Positions 18,137 through 32,615 of a stretch of DNA of 64,000 nt are shown here, piece by piece (position 1 is the first letter of the stretch; each line of letters starts with the position of its first letter). The notes under the pieces are model-generated. The model saw only the letters and a program-made list of their open reading frames with translations. It made no database searches and was not told where the DNA came from. This DNA comes from a phage. A program made the translations under genes and the position numbers. The DNA lies in the sequence record PZ445442.1; one strand, written 5' to 3'.

Positions 18137-18740
18137 TACTTGAAAATTCCTGGCATATCAAGTATAAGGGGGATTTCTAAAATGGATTTCCTCCTTTTGA
18201 TATTTCACCGGGCTGGATATTTTAAAATTCTTAGAAAATCAGAAAATGGATCGAAAACTAAAATGGATTTTTCAGAGTAGGCGCGACAAGCTGAATAGCT
18301 CATCCTATCGTTTGCACCATATTCCAGACCACCATTATAGATTTCCCACACATGCTAACCTCCCTCTACTAGAACTTCCTCCACTTACCCTTGACCTTCT
18401 ATGGTAACAATCTAACCACTATCTTGAAGTTGCGGTGCAGCTTTCCAGGTACTCGATCTACTTTTCATTTCAGGGCTTGGATTTTCTGAAAATTTTTCTC
18501 GATAAATTTCTCAGTACTCGATCTGTTTTTCGTTTTCTGAATCGGATTTTCTGGAAATCGTTCCGGATCTCGACCTGAAATTTTTGGGGACGAAATCTAT
18601 TTTTCGTTTTCAGAAATGGATTTTTAAAATTTCTATATGGGAATATTTTATGGGGCACTGTTTTATAGGAAATTGTTACGGAGGGTAATTAGCATGCTAA
18701 TTAAATTTATTAAATGCGAGGGATTCTTATTTAGAATTTT
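18137..18740. repeat. non-coding region with iteron-like direct repeats and palindromes
   Basis: Repeated AAATGGAT boxes (about 18181, 18244, 18260, 18612); degenerate 65-75 bp direct repeats starting GTACTCGATCT (about 18449 and 18514) containing GATTTTCTG(A/G)AAAT and TTTTCGTTTTC; 18-bp perfect palindrome TAATTAGCATGCTAATTA (about 18687-18704); inverted repeat ATACTTGA/TCAAGTAT near 18136-18165. Confidence 0.5.
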
Positions 18741-18769
18741 GAATGATAATTATTCTCGTTTGCAGAATA

Positions 18770-18960
18770 ACGGGCAGGCCCGGTGATTGTCTCCCGGCCC
18801 CTGCTGCCCCGGCTTGTTATTATAGTATCACACAGGACAAAGAAGGCAAGGATTTTTTGCATAAATTTTTAAATGATAATGATAACCGTTCTCATTTTAT
18901 GAAGCGCCCATCCCCGGTGGTTGTCTCCCCCGTCACCGGTGCCTGCCGTCCTTTCGATAG
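18770..18960 (+). repeat. two copies of a GC-rich stem-loop element (core GGTG(A/G)TTGTCTCC); third inverted copy at about 28343-28392
   Basis: GGCAGGCCCGGTGATTGTCTCC at about 18776 and CCGGTGGTTGTCTCCC...GGTGCCTGCCGT at about 18916; the reverse complement of both halves occurs at about 28343-28392. CCTGGCGGGG boxes at about 18973, 19040, 19227. Confidence 0.45.
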
Positions 18961-19358
18961 GTATATTATGCCGCCTGGCGGGGCCGCTGTCAACACTTTT
19001 CAAAAAATTTTTCTAACCTGATGCGCTAACCGTTGCAACCTGGCGGGGCCAGCCTGGCAGGTCCGCACTATAAAGTAAACAGCTACAGAAGAGGTACAAA
19101 AATGAAAGGTAATGCTACTCGCCTGGGAAATGTAGTGATTAATGATACGGAAGCTATCGCCCTGGTTGAAAAGGTTATGGCGGGAGCGTTGGAACATAAA
19201 GAAGAGTACGAAAAAAATGGTGGTTAACCTGGCGGGGGGCGGCAGGTGGATTCTATCATAAAAATAATTTAAAATAGTCGTTGACAACAAGGTTAATCAT
19301 GGTATTATTACCCTACAAGGTGAACAACACCGCACTAACCAGTAAAGAGGATAAATTT

Positions 19359-19556
19359 ATGAACGCATACGGGATCAAAGTACGTCGCAACACTCGCCAG
19401 GTGGTCACCAATCAAGTGATTTGCCGGGTGGATGTAACCATCAACAACGGGCAAGGCCTTTATAAATTTCGTCGCGGCCATAGCTATACCCTGCAACAGC
19501 TTAATCGTTGCGCCCTGACAAAAGGTCAGATCAACCACTGGTTTAATAAAAAATAA
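19359..19556 (+). CDS. hypothetical protein
   Basis: Track ORF 19281..19556 trimmed to ATG after AAAGAGGA SD; the track start is the TTG of an upstream TTGACA promoter hexamer. Confidence 0.5.
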   Translation: MNAYGIKVRRNTRQVVTNQVICRVDVTINNGQGLYKFRRGHSYTLQQLNRCALTKGQINHWFNKK

Positions 19557-19620
19557 GTATTGACATACAGTCCGACACCAAATACACTAAAAGCACAAAA
19601 GACACTAAGAGGATAAAATC

Positions 19621-20019
19621 ATGAAAACCACTACCTTTAATTTTGATAATGCAGACTTTTCTTTTTCTGATGTCAAGAACTGCCGCCGTGATCGTGGATT
19701 TTACAAGGCTTATAATCTGGTGGGCCTGGACGATGACAATAATTTGCACGAAGTAGCTGAGATCCGGTATTATGCCGCCGCCAGCGGGAACACTCACTAC
19801 TGCGTGTTTTGGATTCACGACAACAAGAACAATAAGTACGGTTATACTGGCGGCAAGGCGAGCGGTCACGGTTACGATAAAGCTAACGCAGCACTTGAGA
19901 GCGCATTAAATGCTATGGGGATCACTGCCGACGGCTGGATCTACGAAGAAGAGTTTTTGTCGGCACTTGCTGACCACCTGGGCTATAAAAAACACATTGT
20001 AACATGCGCCCACGAATAA
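19621..20019 (+). CDS. hypothetical protein
   Basis: Track ORF; AAGAGGATAA SD; upstream TTGACA-N17-TACACT promoter-like element. Confidence 0.55.
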   Translation: MKTTTFNFDNADFSFSDVKNCRRDRGFYKAYNLVGLDDDNNLHEVAEIRYYAAASGNTHYCVFWIHDNKNNKYGYTGGKASGHGYDKANAALESALNAMGITADGWIYEEEFLSALADHLGYKKHIVTCAHE

Positions 20020-20101
20020 AAATCATTGACACGCTGCAAAATTTAAGTAAACTAGACACAAAAGGCGGGAATGTTTCCCGCCAGCACAAAGGAAAAAGAT
20101 C

Positions 20102-20497
20102 ATGAATAAGAACGTACGCCGCATCATGAACGAACTGGCAAACGATGAAAAAATTATTGATATGCATTTGGTCAACATTTGCCGCCGTTGTGTAACATAT
20201 AACAACCGCGCCGCAAAAGCGCGTGAGATGAACGCAAAAGGCACCTTAAAGCCCTTTCAGGTGGTTGTAAAATCTATAACTAGCGCAGCAGGCCAGGCGC
20301 AGGACCACAACAACGAGAGCGCTAATATTGATCCGTCTTACGTAATGAAACGGATCCGGACTTGCAAGAATAAAGAGCAGGTATATAACGTCATAGATTG
20401 GCTGGACTCCCTGGGCGATGTGGTTTACAATAGGTTTTCTGCAGCTATCGAGATCCAGCTTGACAGATTGGACGGGAAAGTACTAAAAACTTATTGA
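20102..20497 (+). CDS. hypothetical protein
   Basis: Track ORF; upstream TTGACA..TAAACT promoter-like element and GGCGGGAATGTTTCCCGCC leader hairpin. Confidence 0.55.
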   Translation: MNKNVRRIMNELANDEKIIDMHLVNICRRCVTYNNRAAKAREMNAKGTLKPFQVVVKSITSAAGQAQDHNNESANIDPSYVMKRIRTCKNKEQVYNVIDWLDSLGDVVYNRFSAAIEIQLDRLDGKVLKTY

Positions 20498-20498
20498 G

Positions 20499-20545
20499 TT
20501 TATTTTTAGATGGCCTTGACACCAGGGCCATCAATAAAGTAAACT
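20499..20545 (+). promoter_or_regulatory. repeated 47-bp promoter cassette with palindrome over the -35 (copy 1)
   Basis: TTTATTTTTAGATGGCCTTGACACCAGGGCCATCAATAAAGTAAACT; GATGGCC/GGCCATC inverted repeat flanks TTGACA; TAAACT 18 nt downstream. Confidence 0.5.
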
Positions 20546-20576
20546 AACCACAGTTGAGCGGAAAGGGGGCTTAAAG

Positions 20577-20696
20577 ATGAGCACTACACGCCAGCACACA
20601 AAGGTAACCATCATCGTTTGCATCATTGGGTACATCCTGGCGCAAATGTTGATGGGTAGCGCCAACGGTGTCGCAAAATTTTTCTTAAACTTTTAA
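20577..20696 (+). CDS. small hydrophobic peptide (39 aa)
   Basis: ATG after AAAGGGGG SD; MSTTRQHTKVTIIVCIIGYILAQMLMGSANGVAKFFLNF; below track size cutoff. Confidence 0.35.
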   Translation: MSTTRQHTKVTIIVCIIGYILAQMLMGSANGVAKFFLNF

Positions 20697-20724
20697 TTGA
20701 CAAGCTAACTTAAATCGATATAAT
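20697..20724 (+). promoter_or_regulatory. sigma70-type promoter (TTGACA-N16-TATAAT)
   Basis: Perfect consensus hexamers; followed by leader hairpin and AAGGAG SD before gene 20776. Confidence 0.6.
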
Positions 20725-20775
20725 AAGCACATAAACGGGAAAACTTCCCAGAACACACAAAAGGAGAAAAACACC

Positions 20776-21117
20776 ATGACTACTATGACCGCCTCAGAAA
20801 AAGCTATGCAGATCGCTGAACTGAAAAAACAGATCGCAGACCTTGAGAATAAGATCGATAACTTTGAAATCGACGAGGACAAGTACGACGAAAACTATGA
20901 TGAATGGTTAGACGAGATCTACGGCGAAATTATGATCGGAAACATTTCTTTTCTTCCGTCGCGTATCCTCAAGGAGCTAGATCCTATCGCTTACCGCTGC
21001 GGATTTAGCGACTACATCGACAGCCTGGATATTGAGGACGATGAAGAATACCAGGAATTACAGACAGAGTTAGAAGAAGCAAAAGAAGAGCTTGCGGAGC
21101 TGGAAGAAAACGAGTAA
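20776..21117 (+). CDS. hypothetical highly acidic coiled-coil protein
   Basis: Track ORF; Asp/Glu-rich throughout (EDKYDENYDEWLDEIYGEI...DIEDDEEYQELQTELEEAKEELAELEENE). Confidence 0.55.
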   Translation: MTTMTASEKAMQIAELKKQIADLENKIDNFEIDEDKYDENYDEWLDEIYGEIMIGNISFLPSRILKELDPIAYRCGFSDYIDSLDIEDDEEYQELQTELEEAKEELAELEENE

Positions 21118-21118
21118 G

Positions 21119-21165
21119 CTTATTTTTAGATGGCCTTGACACCAGGGCCATCAATAAAGTAAACT
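21119..21165 (+). promoter_or_regulatory. repeated 47-bp promoter cassette (copy 2)
   Basis: Identical to the 20499 copy by eye; degenerate relative at about 21455-21502. Confidence 0.5.
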
Positions 21166-21206
21166 TTATACTGTTAACACTGAACTAATGCATAGGAGTT
21201 AAAACC

Positions 21207-21452
21207 ATGGCAGCACTAATCACCAAATATTATGCCCCTACCAACACCAAAAGCGCCCGTATCATGGTAAAAGGCTTCGGACGTAAAAAGGTGTACACCT
21301 GGGATTATGCCTTAGACACGGAAGACAACTACACCAACGCAATGACCGATTTTATTAATGAACTAAATAAGCAGATCTTGACAAGTTATAAAGTGACCGA
21401 TATTGCTTATATAGGTGAAGGCGGGATCTGTTTTGTAGGCATTGTGAAATAG
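21207..21452 (+). CDS. hypothetical protein
   Basis: Track ORF; ATAGGAGTT SD. Confidence 0.55.
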   Translation: MAALITKYYAPTNTKSARIMVKGFGRKKVYTWDYALDTEDNYTNAMTDFINELNKQILTSYKVTDIAYIGEGGICFVGIVK

Positions 21453-21526
21453 TTATTTTTTCGGTGGTCCTGGTTGCAGGGCCATCTATAAAGATAATTT
21501 ATTAACACCATGAAAGGAGAAAGTAC

Positions 21527-22066
21527 ATGATCAGCGGGGCAAGTTTTATTATTGGCGCTATTGCTACGGCTTTAATTGTAAATAAGATCCAGGATAAAAA
21601 GGAAAGAGGAAGTACCGCCCTTGCAGAATATCCATTTTGGGCATTCAACGATAACGAAGATTATATTATAAAGTATAAAAATAAAGAAGGTGACCAAGTA
21701 ACACCGCGACCGATCCCGGCTTACAAAATGCAGGAAACACTATACCGCCTGGAGGCGGGAGGCGCAAAAATTGTAGACTTTTGGGGATACGACCACACAG
21801 ATCAGGAAGTTATAAAGCGCCGTATCCGGGCTATTCAGGCCAATATTGAAGTTAGCAAGGGGGAATATATGAAAATTAATTTCGAGAAAATTGTAAAGCG
21901 CCCTCATGATTCCGAAGAGCTGCCAGAACGCCGCCAGCGTAACAATAAACTGAATAAGCCAAAAAGGTTTGGGAAGATCTGGCGTAATCATTATGATCGT
22001 AAATTGCCCGGCCTACTTTTGGAACGTGAACGACAGGCAGAACGATACCGCCATAAAGACAAATAA
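21527..22066 (+). CDS. hypothetical membrane-anchored protein
   Basis: Track ORF; N-terminal hydrophobic helix, basic C-terminus; GAAAGGAGAAAG SD. Confidence 0.55.
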   Translation: MISGASFIIGAIATALIVNKIQDKKERGSTALAEYPFWAFNDNEDYIIKYKNKEGDQVTPRPIPAYKMQETLYRLEAGGAKIVDFWGYDHTDQEVIKRRIRAIQANIEVSKGEYMKINFEKIVKRPHDSEELPERRQRNNKLNKPKRFGKIWRNHYDRKLPGLLLERERQAERYRHKDK

Positions 22067-22074
22067 CAACCAAC

Positions 22075-22103
22075 GCCCCGCCATTGTGCGGGGCTTTTTA
22101 TTT
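22075..22103 (+). terminator. rho-independent terminator
   Basis: GCCCCGC-CATTGT-GCGGGGC stem followed by TTTTTATTT. Confidence 0.6.
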
Positions 22104-22307
22104 CTATCCTACGAATAGCGCCCCTGGTTGGCCCCACAAACGCCACAAAAGCCCCTACCTATGCAATCCCCTTTCTTGACCTGAAAACAACGTCTAGGGC
22201 CGTTTTATGGCGTTAAAAATATTATTGACAGTGATTTTATTCAAAGCTTGACACCTTGGAATAGTCCGGATATACTAACCACATCAAAGCAAGAAGGAGT
22301 AAACGCC

Positions 22308-22568
22308 ATGCGTAAATTAAAAAATTTTGATAAAGTAGATGTTGTCCTGAATAATTTTTACTACTGCAATAATAAAGCCGTTTGGTGGCGTGATAGCTCC
22401 ACCGATAAAGTTAAAGCGCGCTTTCTCCAGGGGCACTGGCAAGGCCGCCCAGTGATTAAAATCTTAGGGCAATTGGTAGCGTTTAAAAATTGCCACCGTG
22501 TTGACGACGTTGAAGATATTTTGAACATTTTACGCCACAATAATTTAAAAAATAGTGTTGACAAGTAA
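22308..22568 (+). CDS. hypothetical protein
   Basis: Track ORF 22248..22568 trimmed to ATG 22308 after AAGGAGT SD; TTGACA-N17-TATACT promoter-like element upstream (about 22248-22276). Confidence 0.5.
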   Translation: MRKLKNFDKVDVVLNNFYYCNNKAVWWRDSSTDKVKARFLQGHWQGRPVIKILGQLVAFKNCHRVDDVEDILNILRHNNLKNSVDK

Positions 22569-22585
22569 GCCTCAATAAGTATACT
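22558..22585 (+). promoter_or_regulatory. sigma70-type promoter (TTGACA-N16-TATACT) with GC leader hairpin
   Basis: Hexamers read from sequence; followed by GGCGGG-AAAACTT-CCCGCC hairpin and AGGAG SD before ATG 22643. Confidence 0.55.
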
Positions 22586-22642
22586 TAAACACACAGGCGG
22601 GAAAACTTCCCGCCACTAACAAAGAAAATAGGAGAAAATATC

Positions 22643-23266
22643 ATGACCACCGTTAACATTACTACAGGTTACAATTTATCTTTCGACGTGCTGACCGACG
22701 AACAAAAAGAAAAAGCCGTTGAAATGGTCCGCGAAAGAGAAGAACACAGCGGGGATAATTTTTTTGCAGAAAGTGTAATTGAATACTATAAAGAATATGT
22801 TTTTCCAGAGTATGGCCTTGAAGATACCGAAGTACATTGGTCAGGCTTTTGGTGCCAGGGTGACGGCGCGTCAATCAGTGCGGAAAACGTGGATTTAGAA
22901 AAATTCTTGCGTAAAGTAAAGGCCCTGACCAAGTTCCGATCAATTCGTCACTTGTTCGGCACAATGCACGATGGCGAGCTATCCGCAAGTGTTGAGCGTG
23001 ATCCATATAGCCGCTATAGTCACGAAAACACTGTAAGCGGGTACATCGATACTACATGGCTAGACCTGACCGCCAAACAAGAAAATAAAGTGGAAGATCT
23101 GGAAGAGCTGATCACCGAGACGGTACGGGAGCTATCCCGCAAGGTTTACGTAGACCTGGAGGAGGCCTATCTTGAGCAATTTACCGCCGAAAACTTGATC
23201 GGCCTTATCGAGGCAAATGATTGGCGGTTTGATGTGGATGAGCATGGCGAGATGAGTTTTTCATAA
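22643..23266 (+). CDS. hypothetical protein
   Basis: Track ORF with promoter, leader hairpin and SD upstream. Confidence 0.55.
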   Translation: MTTVNITTGYNLSFDVLTDEQKEKAVEMVREREEHSGDNFFAESVIEYYKEYVFPEYGLEDTEVHWSGFWCQGDGASISAENVDLEKFLRKVKALTKFRSIRHLFGTMHDGELSASVERDPYSRYSHENTVSGYIDTTWLDLTAKQENKVEDLEELITETVRELSRKVYVDLEEAYLEQFTAENLIGLIEANDWRFDVDEHGEMSFS

Positions 23267-23355
23267 ATAAAGTGTTGCAATAATCTAAAAACCTGCTATA
23301 TTAAAACTCAAGGGGCAAGACGTTTGCCCCCACACAAAACAAAGAGGAAAACATC

Positions 23356-23736
23356 ATGAAAAACACTACTAAAGCTATTGACACCGTCATGTTTAACCTG
23401 GTTACATTCCGTGAAGATATGAAAGATCTTCCTCGTGAAACAGTGTGCGACCATATCGAAAACTATCGCAAACTAATCAAAGAGTTGCCTTTAAAACGTG
23501 ATCAATATGCGGCTAACGCCATGCTTAATGCCATGATCAAAAAGATGATCCAGTGTGATTTAACCCTGGCCTATGATTATGCAGGCGGTCGTTTTGCAGT
23601 ATACAATCAGCCCGTGCCCGGTATGAGCACCACCGAAGAATTGCACGCGCTCAATCTAAAACAAGACGTGTGGGATAGTATGCCTCGCGTGGTGGTATGG
23701 GTAGAAAGCGGAAAGATTTACGGCGATAATTTTTAA
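23356..23736 (+). CDS. hypothetical protein
   Basis: Track ORF; AAAGAGGAAAA SD; GGGGCAAGACGTTTGCCCC leader hairpin. Confidence 0.55.
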   Translation: MKNTTKAIDTVMFNLVTFREDMKDLPRETVCDHIENYRKLIKELPLKRDQYAANAMLNAMIKKMIQCDLTLAYDYAGGRFAVYNQPVPGMSTTEELHALNLKQDVWDSMPRVVVWVESGKIYGDNF

Positions 23737-23800
23737 TCAGGTAGCAGGCGGCATATTTGCCGCCTTATTGTTAATCAGAACTGTAAAAGAGGTACATAGA

Positions 23801-24172
23801 ATGGAATTTATTATTTTGGCTGTATTTGTTGCCTTGTTCAACGCCTGGATCGCTGGCAAGATGGGTAGATCCGCCTTTTTATGGTTTATTATATCTATTT
23901 TCCTGGGGGTGGTTGCAACTATTGTACTTGTTATCCTTGCAATTGTTGACAAGGGGAATAATAGAAAGGGTAAAGTATTTTCAGACCTGTACGACGCTCA
24001 AACGTTTGTCAACGCCTATTATAGTGATCTTCCAGTCTCCCTACGCTGCAGCCTGGCACAACAAGTTTTCGATGAGGCTAAAACCAGAGATCAAGCCCAT
24101 GAGATATGTTTAACTGAGGCGGATCGCCTATTTGAGAGGAATAGAAAATATGTGGGCCAACCGTTTAAATAA
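23801..24172 (+). CDS. hypothetical membrane protein
   Basis: Track ORF 23768..24172 trimmed to ATG 23801; two predicted TM helices in first 55 aa. Confidence 0.5.
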   Translation: MEFIILAVFVALFNAWIAGKMGRSAFLWFIISIFLGVVATIVLVILAIVDKGNNRKGKVFSDLYDAQTFVNAYYSDLPVSLRCSLAQQVFDEAKTRDQAHEICLTEADRLFERNRKYVGQPFK

Positions 24173-24371
24173 TGCCACATTAATTAATCCCTTTAGTGAA
24201 GATTTGAAGCCAGCCGCCTGGCGTGATGGATTCAATAACGAACGCTTTATTTTCAAGCCTGATCTTGAGGAATTTTATAACAATGGATCGAACAACGACA
24301 GAGATAATTTTTCTTGTGGTGTGCGTAGTGATGGTACTCCTGGGGGCCATTGTAAACCACGTCACTACTAA
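24150..24371 (+). CDS. hypothetical protein
   Basis: Track ORF 24132..24371 trimmed to ATG after GAGAGG SD; an alternative overlapping small TM ORF (in track ORF 24223..24408) cannot be excluded. Confidence 0.4.
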   Translation: MWANRLNNATLINPFSEDLKPAAWRDGFNNERFIFKPDLEEFYNNGSNNDRDNFSCGVRSDGTPGGHCKPRHY

Positions 24372-24391
24372 CAGGGGGAAAGGGGGAGACG

Positions 24392-24511
24392 ATGACACCC
24401 AAGGATAAGCCCCGCACCGATAAGGCGCGCCGTGTTATGGTATGGCTTGAGATCATCGCCCTTGAAATATTGTTAGGGGTAGGGATGTACTTTATCGCTG
24501 TAAGTAACTAA
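24392..24511 (+). CDS. small hydrophobic peptide (39 aa)
   Basis: ATG after GGGGGAGACG SD; MTPKDKPRTDKARRVMVWLEIIALEILLGVGMYFIAVSN; below track cutoff. Confidence 0.35.
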   Translation: MTPKDKPRTDKARRVMVWLEIIALEILLGVGMYFIAVSN

Positions 24512-24515
24512 GAAC

Positions 24516-24544
24516 GGCCCCCCGATCATGGGGGCCTATCTTTT
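24516..24544 (+). terminator. rho-independent terminator
   Basis: GGCCCCCC-GATCAT-GGGGGCC stem followed by TATCTTTT. Confidence 0.5.
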
Positions 24545-24648
24545 AAAAAAATTCTTCCGGGGTGTTGCAATCCGGTCCGGAATGTGGATAATAACAATCA
24601 ACGGGGAGCTAATCCCCACCACCACAAAAACCAGAAAGGAGAAACAAA

Positions 24649-24849
24649 ATGAGCAACAATATCCGCGTTATTAACTTCAAAAAAGAAGAAAAAATTGCCG
24701 TGCTGATTGACGGTCAAGAAATCTTCAAGGGCGACTATGAAGATCATCAAACGGCGATTAGTATCACTCGCGTGATTGGTTACCATAATTTTTACCCCCA
24801 AGGCGCTGAGGCAGCGGTTAAACGAATCAAAGAGATTGTAGGCCTGTAA
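24649..24849 (+). CDS. hypothetical protein
   Basis: Track ORF; AAAGGAGAAAC SD. Confidence 0.55.
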   Translation: MSNNIRVINFKKEEKIAVLIDGQEIFKGDYEDHQTAISITRVIGYHNFYPQGAEAAVKRIKEIVGL

Positions 24850-24851
24850 AA

Positions 24852-24898
24852 TTTATTTTTAGATGGCCTTGACTCCAGGGCCATCAATAAAGTAAATT
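24852..24898 (+). promoter_or_regulatory. repeated 47-bp promoter cassette (copy 3, TTGACT variant)
   Basis: ATTTATTTTTAGATGGCCTTGACTCCAGGGCCATCAATAAAGTAAATT. Confidence 0.5.
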
Positions 24899-24943
24899 TA
24901 AACCCTGTTAAAAATACCACGCAGTTAACAAGGAGTGATAGAC

Positions 24944-25243
24944 ATGTTTATCCAGGCTAATAATCTTTATTTCTTTGATGGTCAGATCGTAGACGGCGTG
25001 GAGGTGGAAATCACCGGGTGCCCTAGCGGTCAGGTTATGACTTTTCGGAATAATGCCTTTGATGATTCTCATATCGTTATGAGAATGGAAGTTAGTAAGC
25101 TGGATGACAAGAAAACACTTATCGACTATTCCGTCAAAGATCATCCAGACTACCACATGATCTATGGTGATTTGTGCATTGTTGACCGTGACAAGGTTGG
25201 CGGCATTGTGATCGCTATTGTGAACGATGTTTTCTCAAACTAA
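24944..25243 (+). CDS. hypothetical protein
   Basis: Track ORF 24935..25243 trimmed to ATG 24944 after AAGGAGTG SD. Confidence 0.5.
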   Translation: MFIQANNLYFFDGQIVDGVEVEITGCPSGQVMTFRNNAFDDSHIVMRMEVSKLDDKKTLIDYSVKDHPDYHMIYGDLCIVDRDKVGGIVIAIVNDVFSN

Positions 25244-25260
25244 TTTCAGCAGGTAATTTT

Positions 25261-25611
25261 ATGAAAGTAAAACTATATTACCTTAATGAGCTTAACCCCC
25301 TTGCCCAGGTCCGCGCCCTGGCTAATACCTTGATTTGTGAGAAATCTGTATATTGTGTTGAGCTTAACGCCATGCGTGAACGTCTCAAAGGTGGTTACTT
25401 TGACATCCATGCTGCAATCAACGGCCTGAATATAGAATTTATCCGCTTACGTAACAGCCGCCAGAATCTGGCAAGAATGGAACAAGATCCGGCCCACCTT
25501 CGTAAGCTGGTTATTGAAAATCATCTGATGTTTAATGCCGATGGTGATTATTACCATTTTCACCGTAAACGCTGGTACCGTAGCGGCAATATAGGAAAGA
25601 ATGCAAAATAA
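25261..25611 (+). CDS. hypothetical protein
   Basis: Track ORF. Confidence 0.55.
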   Translation: MKVKLYYLNELNPLAQVRALANTLICEKSVYCVELNAMRERLKGGYFDIHAAINGLNIEFIRLRNSRQNLARMEQDPAHLRKLVIENHLMFNADGDYYHFHRKRWYRSGNIGKNAK

Positions 25612-25646
25612 GGCCCCTGGCAGGGCCTGCAGCGATATAATCACAT

Positions 25647-25680
25647 AAAGGCTATGCGGTTGCATAGCCTTTATTATTTT
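25647..25680 (+). terminator. rho-independent terminator
   Basis: AAAGGCTATGC-GGTT-GCATAGCCTTT stem followed by ATTATTTT; a second hairpin GGCCCCTGGCAGGGCC lies just upstream. Confidence 0.55.
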
Positions 25681-25820
25681 GGCGTTACAGCGGCCCCCAA
25701 GGCGCTTAAAAAATTTTTAAAGAAGTACTTGCATCAAGTCCTACAATATGGATAATAAAGGGTGTCGGGGGGGGGCGGTGAGGCCTCCAATCATTAACCG
25801 GATAGATAGGAGTTAAAACC

Positions 25821-26105
25821 ATGGCTATTGTTACCGTTGGCGATGTAGTGGAAATGGAAGCAAAATACTTAAAAGCGGGTATGCATATCCTACGCAACGA
25901 TCTTGAACTAGTCCTGACAATGGTTGACTATAACCCAGGGCAAGATTATCCAAGCATCGACTACTTTTTTGAGTATGTTGATGAAGAGTTGAAAGAGGAT
26001 GAGGCCTATTGCGGTGAGTTCTGCAATTTCTTTTGTCCTGATGAGGTTGTAAAGGTTATCTATCAACCTGGCGTACCTTTCCCGCTGCACGCTATCAATA
26101 AATAA
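25821..26105 (+). CDS. hypothetical protein
   Basis: Track ORF; ATAGGAGTT SD. Confidence 0.55.
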   Translation: MAIVTVGDVVEMEAKYLKAGMHILRNDLELVLTMVDYNPGQDYPSIDYFFEYVDEELKEDEAYCGEFCNFFCPDEVVKVIYQPGVPFPLHAINK

Positions 26106-26168
26106 ACCTGGTGGGGCCGAAAAGGCCCCCTCCTGAAACTATGAAAAAATAAAGAGAGGTAAATCATC

Positions 26169-26402
26169 ATGATGGAACAAATTAAACGCGCTGAGTCTAT
26201 TAATGGCAATGTGATCTATTTTGTCAGCAAAAACGAAAAAGGCGTACCATATGCGGCGGTAATAGTACAACCTGACGGCGATTATTGGTTTACTGTATAC
26301 GGATCTTATTCTTTCGGGCGTCCGGTTCATGATAGAATTTTGAAAGTAGCAAATCCGACCGGGAAAAATATCACAGCAGAAAAATTTTTTGAAAATAGTT
26401 GA
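26169..26402 (+). CDS. hypothetical protein
   Basis: Track ORF; AAGAGAGG SD. Confidence 0.55.
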   Translation: MMEQIKRAESINGNVIYFVSKNEKGVPYAAVIVQPDGDYWFTVYGSYSFGRPVHDRILKVANPTGKNITAEKFFENS

Positions 26403-26478
26403 CATGACCATATAAGACTGTAATATATAAATCAAAGGGGGGCAACAAGCCCCACCAACCACAAAGAGGATAAAAATC

Positions 26479-26658
26479 ATGGCTATTATTGCAAAGACTG
26501 AGATCGTAGGCTTAGATTCTATTCTCCTCGCATATGAGGAAGCTATAGAAATGTATGTGGTTTCCTATGGTGAGTATATTCGTGAATATAAATCTATTGA
26601 TCTGGCTTTTGAATGTTATATTCGCCAGGTAAATAAAGCATATGATGATTATCGTTAA
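26479..26658 (+). CDS. hypothetical small protein (59 aa)
   Basis: ATG after AAGAGGATAA SD, preceded by TTGACA-N16-TAATAT promoter-like element (26399-26426) and GC leader hairpin; just below track cutoff. Confidence 0.45.
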   Translation: MAIIAKTEIVGLDSILLAYEEAIEMYVVSYGEYIREYKSIDLAFECYIRQVNKAYDDYR

Positions 26659-26743
26659 AATAGTTTGACAACAATTACAAATCGGGTAGAATGTATTTCG
26701 TAGGGCGGCAATGATGCCGCTCACAACTAAAAGAGAGATCATC

Positions 26744-26938
26744 ATGGCGCTTAAAAAACTAACAAGCAATACTCGTTGGGATGAAATCGACGGGGAAGTT
26801 TACATTTTTGCCCGTAAACCAGGGGATCAAAAATGGTCAAAGGCTTTTACTTGCCATCCTGCAACAATAGATCTGATAAAAAGTCAAGGACTACGTGAAG
26901 CAGTAGCAAGAAGTTTACTGATCCCTTGTAAAAATTAG
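26744..26938 (+). CDS. hypothetical protein
   Basis: Track ORF 26711..26938 trimmed to ATG 26744; TTGACA-N16-TAGAAT promoter-like element (26665-26692) and GCGGCAATGATGCCGC leader hairpin. Confidence 0.5.
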   Translation: MALKKLTSNTRWDEIDGEVYIFARKPGDQKWSKAFTCHPATIDLIKSQGLREAVARSLLIPCKN

Positions 26939-27015
26939 TTTGACAACAGTCAACAATCTGGTAAAGTGTACTACATAGCGCGGGAATACTTCCCGCCATT
27001 AATGAGGGTAATTTA

Positions 27016-27153
27016 ATGAAAACTTTCAACGCAACAGCCTCGACAATTGGTTATATTATTACAGTACAAGCCGTGGATCTGGTAGCAGCAGCAAACAAGA
27101 TTAAAAAGATGATTCCGCCAGGTAGTGAATTTTCCGTTTGGGAAGTAAAATAA
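27016..27153 (+). CDS. hypothetical small protein (45 aa)
   Basis: ATG after GAGGG SD; TTGACA-N16-TAAAGT promoter-like element (26940-26967) and GCGGG-AATACTT-CCCGC leader hairpin. Confidence 0.4.
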   Translation: MKTFNATASTIGYIITVQAVDLVAAANKIKKMIPPGSEFSVWEVK

Positions 27154-27236
27154 ATCTTGACAATAGTTTATTACTTGATAGACTGTATTTCGTAGGGCGG
27201 GGCAATAAGGCAACGCCCATTAATGAGGGTAGAATC

Positions 27237-27341
27237 ATGTTAGAGAAAATTTTCACGGTTGTAGTAGTTGGCCTGGCATTATCGGTTGGAGTGGTTGCAA
27301 CTATGGCTAACATGATCCTATCTTCCCACGGTATCGGTTAA
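27237..27341 (+). CDS. small hydrophobic peptide (34 aa)
   Basis: ATG after GAGGGTAG SD; TTGACA-N16-TAGACT promoter-like element (27157-27184); MLEKIFTVVVVGLALSVGVVATMANMILSSHGIG. Confidence 0.4.
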   Translation: MLEKIFTVVVVGLALSVGVVATMANMILSSHGIG

Positions 27342-27351
27342 GGTGAATCAA

Positions 27352-27567
27352 ATGATCACGAATAAGACAGGTAAAACAGAATTTTTACGCGGCTTGCAAA
27401 TAGGTAAGCCTGAGATCTGGCATTGCACTAAAACACCACGTGACGAAATGAAAGACTTCACCGCCACGCTGCAACGGGTAAAGATATCCATCACGCAGAA
27501 AAAGGCCTTGATAGTGGTGGAAGGTGAGATCCCTCAAACCGTTGTTATAGTTGAGCGTACAGCATAG
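27352..27567 (+). CDS. hypothetical protein
   Basis: Track ORF 27343..27567; ATG 27352 preferred (AAGGTG SD), GTG 27343 possible. Confidence 0.45.
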   Translation: MITNKTGKTEFLRGLQIGKPEIWHCTKTPRDEMKDFTATLQRVKISITQKKALIVVEGEIPQTVVIVERTA

Positions 27568-27658
27568 TTTAATTTATAGCGATACCTGAAAATTAACCAA
27601 TAAATCATAAACAGGCGGTTACCGCCGCCTTAAACGTAGCAGAAAGAGGCTAGACACA

Positions 27659-27943
27659 ATGAAAAAGATGATCGCAGTAGTTGCCCTGGTTGTTGGACTT
27701 AATGCGCCTGTAATGGCTAAAGAGCTGGCAAAAGAGGTTAATCTAACGGATATCCATGCCGTCAATCAAATCGGGGTTACTTATCGCTTATGCCTTGCCG
27801 CTAAAACTTTTAATGACGGCACAACAGAGTACTACGGATTCGAGGGTATCCGGTGCGGTAAGCTTGCTCGCGACCTTAAGGAAGATCCAGACCTGGAAGA
27901 TCTGCCCATCACCGTAAACGGTAAAGCTTACGTAAACCGTTAA
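27659..27943 (+). CDS. hypothetical secreted/periplasmic protein
   Basis: Track ORF; N-terminal signal-peptide-like segment MKKMIAVVALVVGLNAPVMA|KE. Confidence 0.5.
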   Translation: MKKMIAVVALVVGLNAPVMAKELAKEVNLTDIHAVNQIGVTYRLCLAAKTFNDGTTEYYGFEGIRCGKLARDLKEDPDLEDLPITVNGKAYVNR

Positions 27944-27945
27944 CC

Positions 27946-28080
27946 ATGAGAAAGATAATCATCACCTTGGGGATTGTGGCTGGATCGCTGGCGCTCTTTC
28001 CCCTTATGGTTAGGTATGTGCTGATCAGTATTGTCCTGGTAGTCAGTGATCTATTGGGAACGGTTGGCACCTTGTTTTAA
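27946..28080 (+). CDS. small hydrophobic peptide (44 aa)
   Basis: ATG immediately after upstream stop; MRKIIITLGIVAGSLALFPLMVRYVLISIVLVVSDLLGTVGTLF; weak SD. Confidence 0.3.
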   Translation: MRKIIITLGIVAGSLALFPLMVRYVLISIVLVVSDLLGTVGTLF

Positions 28081-28092
28081 AGAGCGATAAAA

Positions 28093-28284
28093 ATGAATAT
28101 CGAACAAGTTAGAAAGGTATTGGCGGTACTGCGTTATCATAATCATAGAAAGGTTATAGACGATCCTGATTATGTTGATTCAAGTCTGGAAGGGGATACA
28201 CTGCAAGCCATAAGCAACATGCAAGAATTGCTCAAGCGCATGACAGAGAAAAACCGACCGGACTACATAGGCGAAAAAATATAA
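28093..28284 (+). CDS. hypothetical protein
   Basis: Track ORF. Confidence 0.5.
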   Translation: MNIEQVRKVLAVLRYHNHRKVIDDPDYVDSSLEGDTLQAISNMQELLKRMTEKNRPDYIGEKI

Positions 28285-28300
28285 TCCTTATAAACTACAA

Positions 28301-28329
28301 AACAGGGCTTGCAATGGTCCTGTTTTTTG
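28301..28329 (+). terminator. rho-independent terminator
   Basis: AACAGG-GCTTGCAATGGT-CCTGTT stem followed by TTTTG. Confidence 0.5.
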
Positions 28330-28495
28330 TTATACTTGTTTCACGGCAGGCACCTGGCGACGGGTGGAGACAATCACCGGGCCTGCCTGTCATATAAGAA
28401 CTATAAAAACCGTTGACATCTGCCAGGTGGTGGGGTAACATTTATCTTGAAGGGGCAAAAGTGCCCACACAACAACCAGAAGAGAGGAAAACATT

Positions 28496-28768
28496 ATGTC
28501 AAGCTGGATTAATCAAGAAGTCGAATCACGTTTTAATGCTATTTGGGATCTCATCGAAAAAGAGGACGGAACATCAAGCCCTTATCTCAATAATCTTGAA
28601 TTCCATTTCGTGGAAGCGATGAACGCAGAACATGATCACGAAGGTGGTGCGGATGAGTTCGCTAAAGGGTATGGCTTCAACAATGCCAACGAAATGATCG
28701 AGGCGGTTGTACTCCAGGCTGAGGAAGATTATCAATTAAAAACGCTTGAATTCTGCCGCCGTAAGTAA
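28496..28768 (+). CDS. hypothetical protein
   Basis: Track ORF; TTGACA..TAACAT promoter-like element, GGGGCAAAAGTGCCC leader hairpin, AGAGAGGAAAA SD. Confidence 0.55.
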   Translation: MSSWINQEVESRFNAIWDLIEKEDGTSSPYLNNLEFHFVEAMNAEHDHEGGADEFAKGYGFNNANEMIEAVVLQAEEDYQLKTLEFCRRK

Positions 28769-28828
28769 TAAGATAATGACACGGGCCAAAAGGCCCACTA
28801 ATCAGAACCACACAAAGAGAGAAAGAAA

Positions 28829-29047
28829 ATGACAACCCGTAAAATTAAAGTTGTTTGCATTGAATCGACTGGGGGCGCTTTTGTAGTTGGTCAGGAATAT
28901 AATGCGGTTTTAATGGGTACGGATTGGAAGGTTAAAGGCCTTAATGGTTACGAGTACGGCACTACTTGCGGCTTGCGTGGTCGAATCGGATACGTGAGTT
29001 TAGACAACAAAGAAAAATTTGTTTTCGACACCGTTGTGAGTAAATAG
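28829..29047 (+). CDS. hypothetical protein
   Basis: Track ORF; GGCCCAAAAGGCCC leader hairpin and AAAGAGAGAAAG SD. Confidence 0.55.
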   Translation: MTTRKIKVVCIESTGGAFVVGQEYNAVLMGTDWKVKGLNGYEYGTTCGLRGRIGYVSLDNKEKFVFDTVVSK

Positions 29048-29125
29048 CATGAATTGCTAAAGACTGATCTGCGAACTGCTGTATTATCAACTAATCAAAA
29101 CGAACCGCATAAAGAGGAAAACATC

Positions 29126-29389
29126 ATGAAACGTCTGGATCAGCTTAAATTAGTTCAGTACATGGCCTACAGAATTCTTGAAGTCCAAAAAGGTAGCAAA
29201 AAAGAGGTTTGCGAGAAAGCTTATAAGATCTTTACTCGCAAAAAAGATGACTGGATGCTACGCCAGACCAAAAAATCCGATATCCTGGGGTACCTGGAAG
29301 AAGAGATCCGGCTTGAAGAACAAGAAGAGATCCGCCGCAGTGAGGCAGATTATCAGGCAGCTTGGGAAAACTGGATGAGCAACAAATAA
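29126..29389 (+). CDS. hypothetical protein
   Basis: Track ORF 29054..29389 trimmed to ATG 29126 after AAAGAGGAAAA SD. Confidence 0.5.
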   Translation: MKRLDQLKLVQYMAYRILEVQKGSKKEVCEKAYKIFTRKKDDWMLRQTKKSDILGYLEEEIRLEEQEEIRRSEADYQAAWENWMSNK

Positions 29390-29455
29390 TACAACAAGTT
29401 ACGGTCAGGGGGGTAATAAAGCCCCTTGATCACATAAAAATTATGCTATCCCTGG

Positions 29456-29484
29456 TTGACAGGGATCGGCAGTTTTGCTATATT
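29456..29484 (+). promoter_or_regulatory. sigma70-type promoter (TTGACA-N17-TATATT)
   Basis: Hexamers read from sequence upstream of gene 29534. Confidence 0.5.
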
Positions 29485-29533
29485 CTTTTTTGAAGGGGAG
29501 TTGTAAGAAAATTAACTAAGAGGTAAAAACACC

Positions 29534-29953
29534 ATGAACATTAAATCTAATAATCCGGCATATAGCTTTGATAACGCTTTTTGTCACGGTCCGGCGGCGA
29601 AAGGATTCGAAATCGATGGTAAACTAATTATTGTCAATGTTGACGGGGAAGAGGTTGCAGTATATCCGGTGGCAGACGTTAAAAGCCGTCTACAATGCCG
29701 CATGGATGTTACCGCCTATCAGCTTGATCCGGTCCGCATAGTTGCCCTGGTCCTGGAAGAAGAAATTAAAGCCATGCACCATAGCAACAGATTTATTGGT
29801 GACGCGCAGGATAATATGAAAGTATGCCGCCATAAAGTTAATGAAGTGCTTAAAGAGTACGGCTATAAAGATCTTATGATCAAACGCGAGGAAAAATTCC
29901 GCTACCGTAACGACCTGGCAAATCGGATTTTTGAAATATACGAATCATTATAA
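29534..29953 (+). CDS. hypothetical protein
   Basis: Track ORF; AAGAGGTAAAAA SD. Confidence 0.55.
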   Translation: MNIKSNNPAYSFDNAFCHGPAAKGFEIDGKLIIVNVDGEEVAVYPVADVKSRLQCRMDVTAYQLDPVRIVALVLEEEIKAMHHSNRFIGDAQDNMKVCRHKVNEVLKEYGYKDLMIKREEKFRYRNDLANRIFEIYESL

Positions 29954-29971
29954 TTTTTTAACTGAATTATC

Positions 29972-29997
29972 AAGGGGCTTAGGCCCCTTTCTTTTTG
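29972..29997 (+). terminator. rho-independent terminator ending the rightward block
   Basis: AAGGGGC-TTAG-GCCCCTT stem followed by TCTTTTTG. Confidence 0.55.
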
Positions 29998-30599
29998 TCT
30001 GCTCTTCCCCCTACCATAAACGGCCCTACCTGGCAAGTGGAATAATTGACGAGCCATCAATCCCACACACTGTACAAACATACATATAAAATAACTATTG
30101 CATAATTTTTCATTGTGTGGTAGCAGGGCCATTTTTACACATTTTTCCTTCCAAAATTGCACGTAATGCAGCATTTGCACAAAATTTAACCTGATGCATA
30201 TATTCAATAGCTTGTCAACAACTAAAAATCTTTATAAGTCATACACTTACATAACTACAAAAGCGTTTTCTACGTGAAAAATCGAGTATAACTATAGCCG
30301 CCAGATCTCAGAATTTACGTACGCTCGCCATTCTATAGCCTGCTAAGCATTTATTCCAACCATAGAATAACGGAATAGTCAATACCTGCATAAAATAATT
30401 ATTCGTGTAAACTGCATAACATAAATCGGCCCAGGTGTCAACATTTTTCGTAAACAGTCTGGAATTGTCACGTTAGGTTACCATAAGCAGAGAAATCTTT
30501 AGTCGTCTAATGTTTACTGTACGTTACTATATTAACTGAAATCATTAGATGACTAATAGAAAGATAAGAAATAATTAACAATACAATTATTTTATCTGT

Positions 30600-30960
30600 A
30601 ACAATAAGGCAACTATGCAAACGAATGGCATGGCGCGACGGAGTCGCGACATAATATAAAAGCAGTAACCATCACCCCCGTGATAGTTTGTCTGCAAACT
30701 ATTAATCAGATCATAGTTGCCTTGTATTTAGTTAATCATGACATAACAAGCAAGGCAACTATAGATCTTCTAATAGTTGCCCTGCTTTTATATTATGTCA
30801 TAAATTATTAACATGCAAACGAATGGCATGGCTTATAATTTTTGAGAAAATAGTCTATACGTGAACAGTAAGGCATGCAATAGTAACAATTGTTATTGTA
30901 TCCAGTGTGTTGAGTATGCCCAGTATGTCACCATTGTGTCCAGTATGTCAGACAAGTTTT
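30600..30960. repeat. cluster of inverted and direct repeats in the convergent non-coding region
   Basis: 9-bp site GGCAACTAT at about 30608 and 30754, its complement ATAGTTGCC at about 30713 and 30773; 19-bp direct repeat TGCAAACGAATGGCATGGC at about 30616 and 30814; 18-bp inverted pair GACATAATATAAAAGCAG (about 30648) / CTGCTTTTATATTATGTC (about 30782); CCAGTATGTCA x2 at about 30920-30950. Confidence 0.5.
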
Positions 30961-32399: not shown

Positions 32400-32615
32400 T
32401 CAGTCCAGCGGTTCATCCTCTACTTCACTGAAATCAATGTTCATGGTCTCTTCCCAACCATCGATCTCAGCACAAGAGTGGAGTTCTTTAGGGTTTACTC
32501 CCAAAGCCTCAGCAACAGAGTCTATATTTAACACCTCTGGCAGGTATGATTCATCGAATTCAAGGTAAATCAGGCCACGAGTGTTGTCAGCTCCACCAAA
32601 TATTTCTATCTTCAT
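32400..32615 (-). CDS. hypothetical small acidic protein
   Basis: Track ORF; last gene of the leftward block. Confidence 0.5.
   Translation of the reverse strand: MKIEIFGGADNTRGLIYLEFDESYLPEVLNIDSVAEALGVNPKELHSCAEIDGWEETMNIDFSEVEDEPLD

Follow-up and report, generated by a model that had tools for sequence, protein, structure and literature searches.

The question raised by positions 18743-29997 of a 64,000-nucleotide (nt) stretch of phage DNA (record PZ445442.1; the whole stretch is termed the window) is how a block of about 28 small open reading frames [ORFs; 34-207 amino acids (aa), 19359-29953, + strand], which PHROGs assigns to families of 'unknown function', is read, and how such ORFs enter and leave the genome. 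The region is 100% identical to the corresponding part of Escherichia phage EmilHeitz (Bas49, MZ501062.1), a Vequintavirus of the rV5-like group, where it extends from bas49_0104 to bas49_0135 and holds 32 + strand coding sequences, 31 annotated as 'hypothetical protein' and one as 'putative holin', and 255 phage records match it at ≥80% identity. Small early genes behind host-type promoters are a textbook arrangement, and a sequence-only reading of this DNA had proposed an array of about 30 small genes, each with its own consensus promoter, 5' hairpin and CA-rich leader. The answer that we favor, and hold to be probable, is that this is a hyperplastic accessory region in which the roughly 28 ORFs are read rightward by the host polymerase from repeated expression and recombination cassettes of the promoter-early stem-loop (PeSL) type. 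PeSLs are known from the T4-like phages RB49/phi1, PST/T4 and nt-1/KVP40 and are defined by a near-perfect sigma-70 promoter with an AT-rich upstream region, a Gn-loop-Cn stem-loop and then a Shine-Dalgarno sequence (SD) and ATG (PMC2839356; PMC4122927).

The promoters stand far above chance. Region 18743-29997 holds 14 exact matches to TTGACA-N16-18-TAnnnT on its + strand and none on its - strand; in 300 dinucleotide shuffles the count averaged 0.15 and never exceeded 2. A scan with a looser consensus gave 57 promoter-like sites vs 34.8 ± 6.1 in shuffles. With the weaker promoters at 23275, 24565, 24869, 25729, and 28309, there are about 19 in all. The promoters named in the sequence-only reading (20697, 22558, 26399, 26665, 26940, 27157, and 29456) are all present at the positions given. 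Its claim that each gene has its own promoter does not hold, since about 19 promoters serve some 28-30 ORFs, several of which abut or overlap a neighbor. A/T-rich tracts (AAAATAG/TTTTTAG) lie upstream of the array promoters, and this combination of sigma-70 consensus and A/T-rich upstream sequence means that unmodified host RNA polymerase should read them. Neither the late-promoter motifs proposed for rV5 nor the T4 late box was found within the array. Transcription by the unmodified host sigma-70 enzyme, as had been proposed, is thus the expected mode and would place expression early in infection. The rV5 genome paper (2013) lists the orthologous promoters P164, P168, P174, P185, P186, P192, P194, and P195 in entries that end 7 nt past the -10 box, with hairpins unmentioned; hence the promoters were already predicted, but the hairpin cassettes are undescribed there.

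What follows the promoters is equally regular. The order of parts in a cassette is an A/T-rich UP region, TTGACA, N16-18, the -10 box, about 10 nt, a Gn-loop-Cn hairpin, an A/C-rich leader, the SD and ATG. The downstream hairpin is found behind 10 of the approximately 19 promoters and always starts 10-13 nt past the -10 box; among the 29 unique hairpin-bearing leaders of seven Vequintavirus genomes this distance from the -10 hexamer is 10-13 nt in 28 and 15 nt in one. At 7 of the 14 exact promoters, the predicted fold of the 28 nt beginning 8 nt past the -10 box falls below the 5th percentile of the region (p = 2e-6). In the predicted 5' untranslated regions (UTRs), a short unpaired 5' end leads into a hairpin of -12 to -15 kcal/mol (z -2.3 to -5.6), behind which the leader has no predicted pairs; the G-rich arm comes first in every promoter-proximal hairpin. 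In a second arrangement, class B, the -35 box lies in the hairpin loop; this accounts for five cassettes, namely the four copies of a repeat termed D1, one of them degenerate with its -35 box lost, and the promoter at 29456 (P29456). Four further hairpins, at 23746, 26113, 27613, and 28783, are promoterless. The earlier proposal that every promoter is followed by a hairpin is therefore only partly borne out: the hairpins that it quoted exist (22596-22614, 23312-23330, and 26705-20), but such structures follow only about 10 of about 19 promoters. Its CA-rich spacer is well supported, as the leader between hairpin and SD is 79% A+C vs 52% in the background (p = 6.5e-14), with G/U-poor, CA-rich tracts of 6-19 nt directly 5' of the SD and 18-31 nt from hairpin end to ATG.

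The promoter-proximal hairpins do not look like classical intrinsic terminators. No U-tract follows any of the ten, whose tails are AGCACAAA, ACTAACAA, CACACAAA and similar, and this absence argues against classical intrinsic termination. The interspersed intrinsic terminators of the earlier description are real but separate elements, five canonical + strand hairpins each followed by a T-run at 22075, 24516, 25645, 28299, and 29972, and a scan gave 32 terminator-like sites vs 14.1 ± 4.0 in shuffles. The possibility that the hairpins are minus-strand terminators was also considered and rejected: T-rich tails on that strand accompany only three or four of them, and the copies of the type seen in phage ESCO13 have none. 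The stem sequence alone is no unique signature, as it is that of a common terminator: of 114 occurrences of the exact hairpin GGCGGGAA-N3-TTCCCGCC at IMG/VR loci L021-L133, from diverse viral contigs, 76 have a T-run behind them, and its U-less use with a promoter and an SD appears only in rV5-like or phAPEC8-like contigs (~137-155 kb).

Base pairing in the hairpins is maintained while their sequences change. In 58 unique hairpins from 13 loci, 412 pairs (94%) are Watson-Crick, 16 are G.T, 7 are A.C and 5 are other, a percentage that is biased upward in that the hairpins of the pairing and covariation sets were chosen because they pair. A MAFFT/RNAalifold consensus of these unequal hairpins misaligned the 3' arms and recovered four pairs, and for this reason an apex-centered alignment was adopted. 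In that alignment of 31 hairpins, both sides change in 8 of 10 pairs and the covariation score is 0.43, compared with 0.16 after shuffling (0/500 reach 0.43) and ≤0.16 for slid partners. The excess of G.T over A.C mismatches (16 vs 7) does not favor selection on the sense-strand RNA at significance (p = 0.09, with counts that are not independent) and does not discriminate a function in the RNA from one in the DNA.

Comparison with relatives shows where the region is cut and joined. GenBank phage records were taken for this purpose because the IMG/VR protein route gave just two close relatives. Comparison of EmilHeitz with eight relatives gave 22 unique breakpoints, 17 of them in intergenic cassettes or at gene edges vs 27% expected (p = 1e-6), an enrichment that purifying selection alone would in part produce. 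The sequences at the junctions are more informative. In the relative L008 a two-gene module of 620 bp is missing exactly between the D1 copies at 20497 and 21117, of which one 49-nt copy is left. A breakpoint at 26674, just past the -35 box of the promoter at 26665, is common to five of six genomes, and between the orthologue of ORF 26479 and the gene of a 34-aa membrane peptide there are, depending on the phage, none to three different promoter-hairpin-ORF modules. MiataMamis carries a 540-bp three-ORF insert between two TTGACA boxes, one of which persists in EmilHeitz as an orphan at 22226, while CM1, isim, JLBYU08, and MiataMamis lack ORF 28829-29047 and have one hybrid leader in its place. 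Justusliebigvirus phages share module 26655-26938 at 94-95% identity, whereas it is absent from most Vequintaviruses, which suggests a recent exchange between subfamilies.

The repeats within the array fit this picture. Family D1 comprises four 49-nt copies (20497, 21117, 21451, and 24850), family D2 three 56-nt copies that cover promoter and hairpin, and families D5 and D9 are copies of hairpins. To judge from these alignments, the cassettes are recombination seams at which genes are inserted, lost and swapped, an aspect that the sequence-only reading had missed, as it had the fact that they are repeated composite units of PeSL type. Blocks of 20-21 nt are also 100% identical before unrelated genes (23341-23361 = 29111-29131; 21192-21211 = 25806-25825); they span the SD, the spacer, the ATG and the first codon, and could be a further short homology that mediates module exchange.

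The same architecture is found well beyond the Vequintaviruses, in four coliphage lineages: Vequintavirinae, Stephanstirmvirinae, Asteriusvirus, and Krischvirus (RB49). In ESCO13 (Phapecoctavirus) nearly every small gene over 10 kb lies behind the same promoter-hairpin design, with TTGACA-N16-17-TAnnnT followed in turn by GTATCACATAG, by either GGCGGCAATGGTGCCGCC or GGCGGGAATAGTTCCCGCC, and by a short leader and an SD; the jumbo phage PBECO4 (Asteriusvirus) uses it behind TTGCAA-N17-TATAAT; Justusliebigvirus genomes have many more cassette copies; and VEcB and C3 also possess it. The single cassette 26655-26746 has matches in 185 phage records and in up to eight places in one record. The RB49 sequence holds cassettes with the same parts and CA-rich leaders, the hairpin upstream of rIIB lying 10 nt past a TATAAT box, and the RB49 PeSL TTGACAGGGGATCGGCGATCCCCTATACT is similar in sequence to P29456 of EmilHeitz and to its ESCO13 counterpart. 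The rV5 annotation likewise notes several array ORFs as similar to RB49 proteins.

The array cassettes match PeSLs both in structure and in comparative behavior, as far as sequence can tell. Array and T4-like phages share a strong sigma-70 promoter with an AT-rich upstream region, a G-first stem-loop in which G-T pairs are allowed, and an end in the SD and ATG of small ORFs, with many copies in a hyperplastic region, and the leaders of RB49 are CA-rich as are those of the array. The PeSL stem-loop occupies one of five positions, including 'over -35 box' and 'downstream of -10 box' (PMC2839356; PMC4122927), and the array has ten cassettes downstream of the -10 box and five over the -35 box. PeSLs also cluster among the ORFans of hyperplastic regions and are tied to indels between close relatives (PMC2839356; PMC4122927), just as insertions, deletions and replacements in the array are bounded by cassettes. 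There are two differences. The array phage is a Vequintavirus whereas the known PeSL hosts are Straboviridae, which concerns taxonomic scope rather than a mechanistic feature. The array places its hairpins mostly downstream of the -10 box at a fixed 10-13 nt, whereas positions between the boxes or over the -10 box are the commonest in RB49. Promoter activity, terminator-like activity and the formation of mini-circles have been demonstrated for the PeSLs of T4-like phages (PMC2839356; PMC4122927). No report of PeSLs outside the T4-like phages was found in the literature searched, and what is new here, on the genomes compared, is PeSL-type mobile cassettes outside that group, with a strict promoter-hairpin spacing, in at least four coliphage lineages.

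With PeSL-type cassettes now placed in rV5-like phages, the related copies in phAPEC8/phi92-like and 121Q-like phages suggest a common plug-and-play format by which large coliphages may acquire and express accessory genes. Such cassettes would explain how accessory genes travel along with the signals needed to express them, they flag sites of fast-evolving genes that are likely candidates for host takeover or anti-defense, and they provide compact natural expression parts in which strong promoter, 5' hairpin and unstructured leader are combined.

In the mechanism that we propose, each cassette would act as a self-contained expression module. With a transcript start predicted at 6-8 nt past the -10 box and a hairpin at 10-13 nt, 3-6 free nt would precede the stem, and as a 5'-terminal stem-loop the hairpin would hinder decay by RppH and RNase E that depends on the 5' end. 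A leader poor in G and U cannot pair with itself and would leave the SD open, and with 18-31 nt from hairpin end to ATG a ribosome at initiation would lie directly against the hairpin. Short homologies would at the same time be available in the conserved blocks (UP/-35, hairpin, and leader/SD/ATG), at which recombination could insert, delete or swap ORF modules that carry their own expression signals, even across phage families. A role of the hairpins as 5' stabilizers of mRNA is plausible. The ompA and papA 5' UTRs and the T7 phi10 leader have a stable hairpin near the 5' end and then an unstructured ribosome-binding region, and the array UTRs are built alike, with the hairpin near the predicted 5' end; they differ in that their free tail of 3-6 nt is a prediction and borderline in length and in that the hairpins are part of a repeated mobile cassette. 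The list of references in PMC3997798 includes work on the stabilizing stem-loops of these three leaders. The G/U-poor, CA-rich tracts directly 5' of the SD resemble translational enhancers, although the composition of the leader could equally come from avoiding pairing with the hairpin arms. C/A-rich enhancers upstream of the SD in enterobacterial mRNAs were reportedly described by Sharma et al. in 2007 and by Martin-Farmer and Janssen in 1999.

Several points weigh against this mechanism. Protection by a 5' stem-loop is said (Emory et al. in 1992) to be limited to roughly 2-4 unpaired 5' nt, and the predicted 3-6 nt lie at or beyond that limit. Downstream hairpins accompany only about half of the promoters, and strong promoters elsewhere, also outside the array in both arms of the window and mostly with short leaders, manage without them. 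Neither the class B nor the promoterless hairpins can act at the 5' ends of their own transcripts. The selection bias of the pairing sets, the non-significant mismatch counts and the share of purifying selection in the breakpoint enrichment all count on the same side, as does the fact that no transcriptome, start-site, timing or half-life data for any Vequintavirus were found in the literature searched.

It is against this background that other explanations of the hairpins have to be weighed. The main one, as the PeSL authors proposed, is that they are attenuators, terminators or 3'-end barriers for upstream transcripts, limiting the build-up of read-through and defining stable 3' ends of upstream messages, so that their position in a 5' UTR is incidental. 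A PeSL stem-loop of RB49/phi1 cut lacZ expression about as much as rrnB T1, the four promoterless hairpins lie past stop codons, the class B hairpins precede the start sites of their own transcripts, and the GGCGGGAA-N3-TTCCCGCC stem does occur with a T-run in most of its IMG/VR occurrences. As an explanation of the whole set we nevertheless consider this unlikely, given that CA-rich sequence rather than a U-tract follows the ten promoter-proximal hairpins, that the array has five separate canonical terminators, and that a pure attenuator needs no fixed spacing of 10-13 nt from the -10 box. For the promoterless and class B hairpins an attenuator or 3'-barrier role may apply, and it is compatible with stabilization of 5' ends by the others. 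That the stems are instead decaying remnants of terminators, left by recombined terminator-promoter junctions and now without function, would account for the use of the same stem as an ordinary terminator elsewhere and for degenerate or half cassettes (21451-21499 and a half-hairpin in MiataMamis); we think it very improbable in view of the retained Watson-Crick pairing with both sides of pairs changing, the strict placement of the hairpins and their persistence in four phage lineages.

A further view dispenses with RNA folding and takes the palindromes to act as DNA, either as operators, centered near +13, for a dimeric phage repressor that turns early promoters off, or as targets for cruciform formation or site-specific recombination. 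Their location at +4 to +22 is reminiscent of lacO, phages of different families share the half-site GGCGGGAA/TTCCCGCC, and A.C mismatches are nearly as frequent as G.T. One crossover was mapped by the PeSL authors to the loop of a stem-loop, and one array breakpoint lies inside a hairpin (26709-26712). Yet the spacing of the half-sites varies with loops of 3-7 nt and the stems differ widely within one genome (GGGGCAA.., GGGGAG.., GGGCA.., and GGCGGCA..), which is unsuited to a single DNA-binding protein, and most breakpoints are at the -35 box or in the leader and SD rather than in the hairpin; this view is therefore improbable. A comparison with lambda nut or HK022 put, which are antitermination elements close to promoters, was also made, since in all of them a small hairpin comes soon after an early promoter in a region with terminators. 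The array has no boxA, its loops are variable (3-7 nt) with no GNRA-like pentaloop, and there is no Rfam match; the variable loops and the missing boxA led us to reject a nut-like element. We know of no N-like protein in this phage group. A more speculative reading, to which we give little credence, is that the G-first hairpin, at its fixed short distance from the 5' end of early transcripts in the four lineages, is a shared mark of 'self', a cis signal recognized by a particular factor of host or phage. As rV5 encodes a putative Srd homologue (rV5 genome paper), phage-stimulated decay of host mRNA by RNase E is one candidate setting. Phage accessory messages would then be spared or preferentially translated during host shut-off, and the cassettes would spread a portable immunity tag for genes newly gained by the phage.

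The coding content of the region was assessed by a codon-position test on 36 ORFs with up to 11 related loci each (chi2 p < 0.05). An excess of substitutions at third codon positions was found in 24 of the 36, for example 70 of 87 in ORF 19621-20019 and 111 of 160 in ORF 22643-23266, and five more were ambiguous. The bias was absent, over up to 11 related loci, in ORFs 18435-18578, 18584-18688, 18743-19021, 19102-19227, 20004-20105, and 28327-28416, all of which except 18584-18688 also have frameshifting indels among relatives. The earlier estimate of about 30 small genes thus survives as about 28 coding-like ORFs, without its first 'gene' (18743-19021), which is probably non-coding, so that the array proper begins at the promoter at 19281. 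ORFs 18743-19021, 20004-20105, and 28327-28416 are probably not genes. The second of these, annotated as the 33-aa ORF bas49_0107, overlies promoter 20026 and hairpin 20064-20082 and has evenly spread substitutions and four frameshifting indels; the third, the 29-aa bas49_0131, lies over a GC-rich element and is not coding-like. Conversely, the unannotated 64-aa ORF 26744-26938 matches phrog_20168 (E = 9e-44), has 8 of 12 substitutions at third positions and possesses its own cassette. The annotation can be corrected accordingly: at least four annotated ORFs appear to be regulatory DNA, and one real ORF was missing. Of the four annotated ORFs that do not evolve as coding sequence would, three are in the region and one is immediately upstream of it.

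The proteins gave few clues. All 30 ORFs searched fall in PHROGs families of 'unknown function', and in Pfam the same number gave a single match above threshold, Phage_1_1 (T7 gp1.1) at residues 116-149 of ORF 21527-22066, an entry whose description states no function; sub-threshold matches (GvpG, NEMP, DUF4116, and others) were discarded. The sequence-only reading had recognized no family, and it had taken clear homology of most ORFs to structural proteins as evidence against its proposal; no array ORF resembles a virion protein in PHROGs or Pfam. A role in host takeover or anti-defense is no more than a reasonable guess. The 179-aa ORF 21527-22066 joins two PHROGs, phrog_12734 and the phrog_8176 that coincides with Phage_1_1; in rV5 and MiataMamis two overlapping ORFs are annotated at this place, and nine frameshifting indels occur in the alignments. 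It is either a frameshift-fused gene or two genes. A PDB sequence search with three larger ORFs, including the 207-aa one, gave no match, and for the confident predicted model of the 207-aa protein no structural relative was found. Relatives of that protein occur in rV5-like phages and also, with ~60% identity, on contigs of ~350 kb.

The + strand elements can now be followed from 5' to 3', each promoter being given with the ORF that it is predicted to drive; class A denotes cassettes with the downstream hairpin. The first promoter (19281-19308, TG-extended, 11/12 matches) has at most a weak 4-bp hairpin and serves ORF 19359-19556, and the second (19560-19588, rV5 P195) has a short CA-rich leader and no hairpin and serves ORF 19621-20019. 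The class A cassette at 20026-20101 (promoter 20026-20053, rV5 P194) has hairpin 20064-20082 (GGCGGGAATGTTTCCCGCC, -14.6 kcal/mol, z -4.45) and leader AGCACAAAGGAAAAAGATC before ORF 20102-20497. Class B copy 1 (20497-20545, 49 nt), with its -35 TTGACA in the loop of GATGGCC...GGCCATC, precedes ORF 20577-20696, and is followed by a class A cassette with a 12/12 promoter (20697-20775, rV5 P192; hairpin 20737-20749, GGGAAAACTTCCC; leader AGAACACACAAAAGGAG) for ORF 20776-21117. Class B copy 2 (21117-21165, 98% identical to copy 1) serves ORF 21207-21452, and the degenerate copy (21451-21499, 71% identical, -35 lost) lies upstream of ORF 21527-22066, behind which the first canonical terminator (22075-22094) has the arms GCCCCGCC..GGCGGGGC and then TTTTTATTT.

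The orphan TTGACA at 22226 is followed by promoter 22248-22276 (rV5 P186; together 22226-22276) for ORF 22308-22568. The class A cassette at 22558-22642 (rV5 P185) has hairpin 22596-22614 (GGCGGGAAAACTTCCCGCC, z -5.63) and leader ACTAACAAAGAAAATAGGAG and serves ORF 22643-23266, which encodes the 207-aa protein, and that at 23275-23355, with a TG-extended TTGCAA-N16-TATATT promoter, hairpin 23312-23330 and leader CACACAAAACAAAGAGG, serves ORF 23356-23736. Just past a stop codon, a promoterless G-first hairpin with a weak T-rich tail (23746-23765) stands before ORFs 23801-24172, 24150-24371, and 24392-24511 and may be an attenuator or a half cassette; a canonical terminator (24516-24536) comes next. 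A class A cassette with TTGCAA-N16-GATAAT (24565-24648; hairpin 24603-24617, GGGGAGCTAATCCCC; leader ACCACCACAAAAACCAGAAAGGAG) precedes ORF 24649-24849, and class B copy 4 (24850-24898, 94% identical, with TTGACT) precedes ORFs 24944-25243 and 25261-25611 and the terminator at 25645-25674, a 13-bp stem followed by TATTTT. The promoter TTGCAT-N16-GATAAT with a G-rich hairpin at about 25768-25789 (25729-25820) serves ORF 25821-26105. A G9 run in this leader hairpin (25768-25778) varies among relatives (G5, G6 or interrupted) and is possibly prone to slippage.

Past a stop codon, a promoterless hairpin (GGGGCCGAAAAGGCCCC, 26113-26129) lies upstream of ORF 26169-26402, and the class A cassette at 26399-26478 (rV5 P174; hairpin 26439-26453; leader ACCAACCACAAAGAGG) serves ORF 26479-26658. 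The three D2 copies follow as class A cassettes: copy 1 (26657-26743, promoter 26665) has a hairpin at 26703-22 with one G.U pair (GGGCGGCAATGATGCCGCTC) and serves the unannotated ORF 26744-26938; copy 2 (26932-27015, promoter 26940, hairpin 26980-26996) serves ORF 27016-27153; and copy 3 (27149-27236, promoter 27157, hairpin 27196-27219) serves the 34-aa membrane-peptide ORF 27237-27341 and ORF 27352-27567. A promoterless hairpin (27613-27630) is upstream of ORFs 27659-27943, 27946-28080, and 28093-28284, behind which come a canonical terminator (28299-28326) and a promoter (TTGCAA-N16-TATACT) followed by the third copy of a GC-rich element of about 45 nt (28309-28400). The last class A cassette (28413-28495, rV5 P168; hairpin 28453-28466; leader ACACAACAACCAGAAGAGAGG) serves ORF 28496-28768. 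In the segment 28783-29125, promoterless hairpin 28783-28796 precedes ORF 28829-29047, which is flanked by 17-nt leader repeats (28806-28822, GAACCACACAAAGAGAG; 29094-29110, GAACCGCATAAAGAGGA). Promoter 29456-29484 (rV5 P164; element 29440-29533), whose -35 box is enclosed in the loop that ATCCCTGG..CAGGGAT (29448-29466) forms, serves ORF 29534-29953, and the terminator at 29972-29989 closes the array before a non-coding gap of 2.4 kb.

Both borders of the array have features of their own. The left one (18435-19300, ~850 nt) is annotated as the small ORFs bas49_0102-0104, none of which has a coding signature; substitutions in the alignment are uniform over codon positions, and the block contains repeats and predicted folds. 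These include three tandem 65-74-nt repeats (18439-18650), a - strand consensus promoter with TTGACA at 18993-18988, and two - strand copies of the GC-rich ~45-nt element with core GGAGACAAYCACCGGG (18757-18830 and 18895-18965). The block could encode a small RNA, serve as a protein-binding site or be related to an origin. The third copy of the element, on the + strand (28309-28416), has a fold z-score of only -2.2, and its part 28366-28393 forms a 28-nt inverted repeat, 93% complementary, with 18767-18794, 9.6 kb away. Over the whole window, Rfam 15 covariance models at the gathering score and a tRNA scan gave 0 Rfam matches and 0 tRNAs.

On the right, a gene-free gap of 2.4 kb (30000-32400), which the rV5 genome paper drew as a 'non-coding' box, lies between convergent arms and faces the - strand arm; the sign of the GC skew flips near 31-32 kb of the window. 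Within the gap, a direct repeat of 20 nt is exact (30615 and 30813), inverted repeats of 18 nt are perfect (30648 and 30782), and a - strand promoter lies at 32270; there is neither a tRNA nor an Rfam match. Finally, among the records compared, more than 20 GenBank entries numbered MG0656xx (e.g., L019) are titled 'Campylobacter phage' and are 93-100% identical to rV5-like or phi92-like phages of E. coli; one of them, C3, carries an UNVERIFIED flag, and the host labels of these records are probably wrong.

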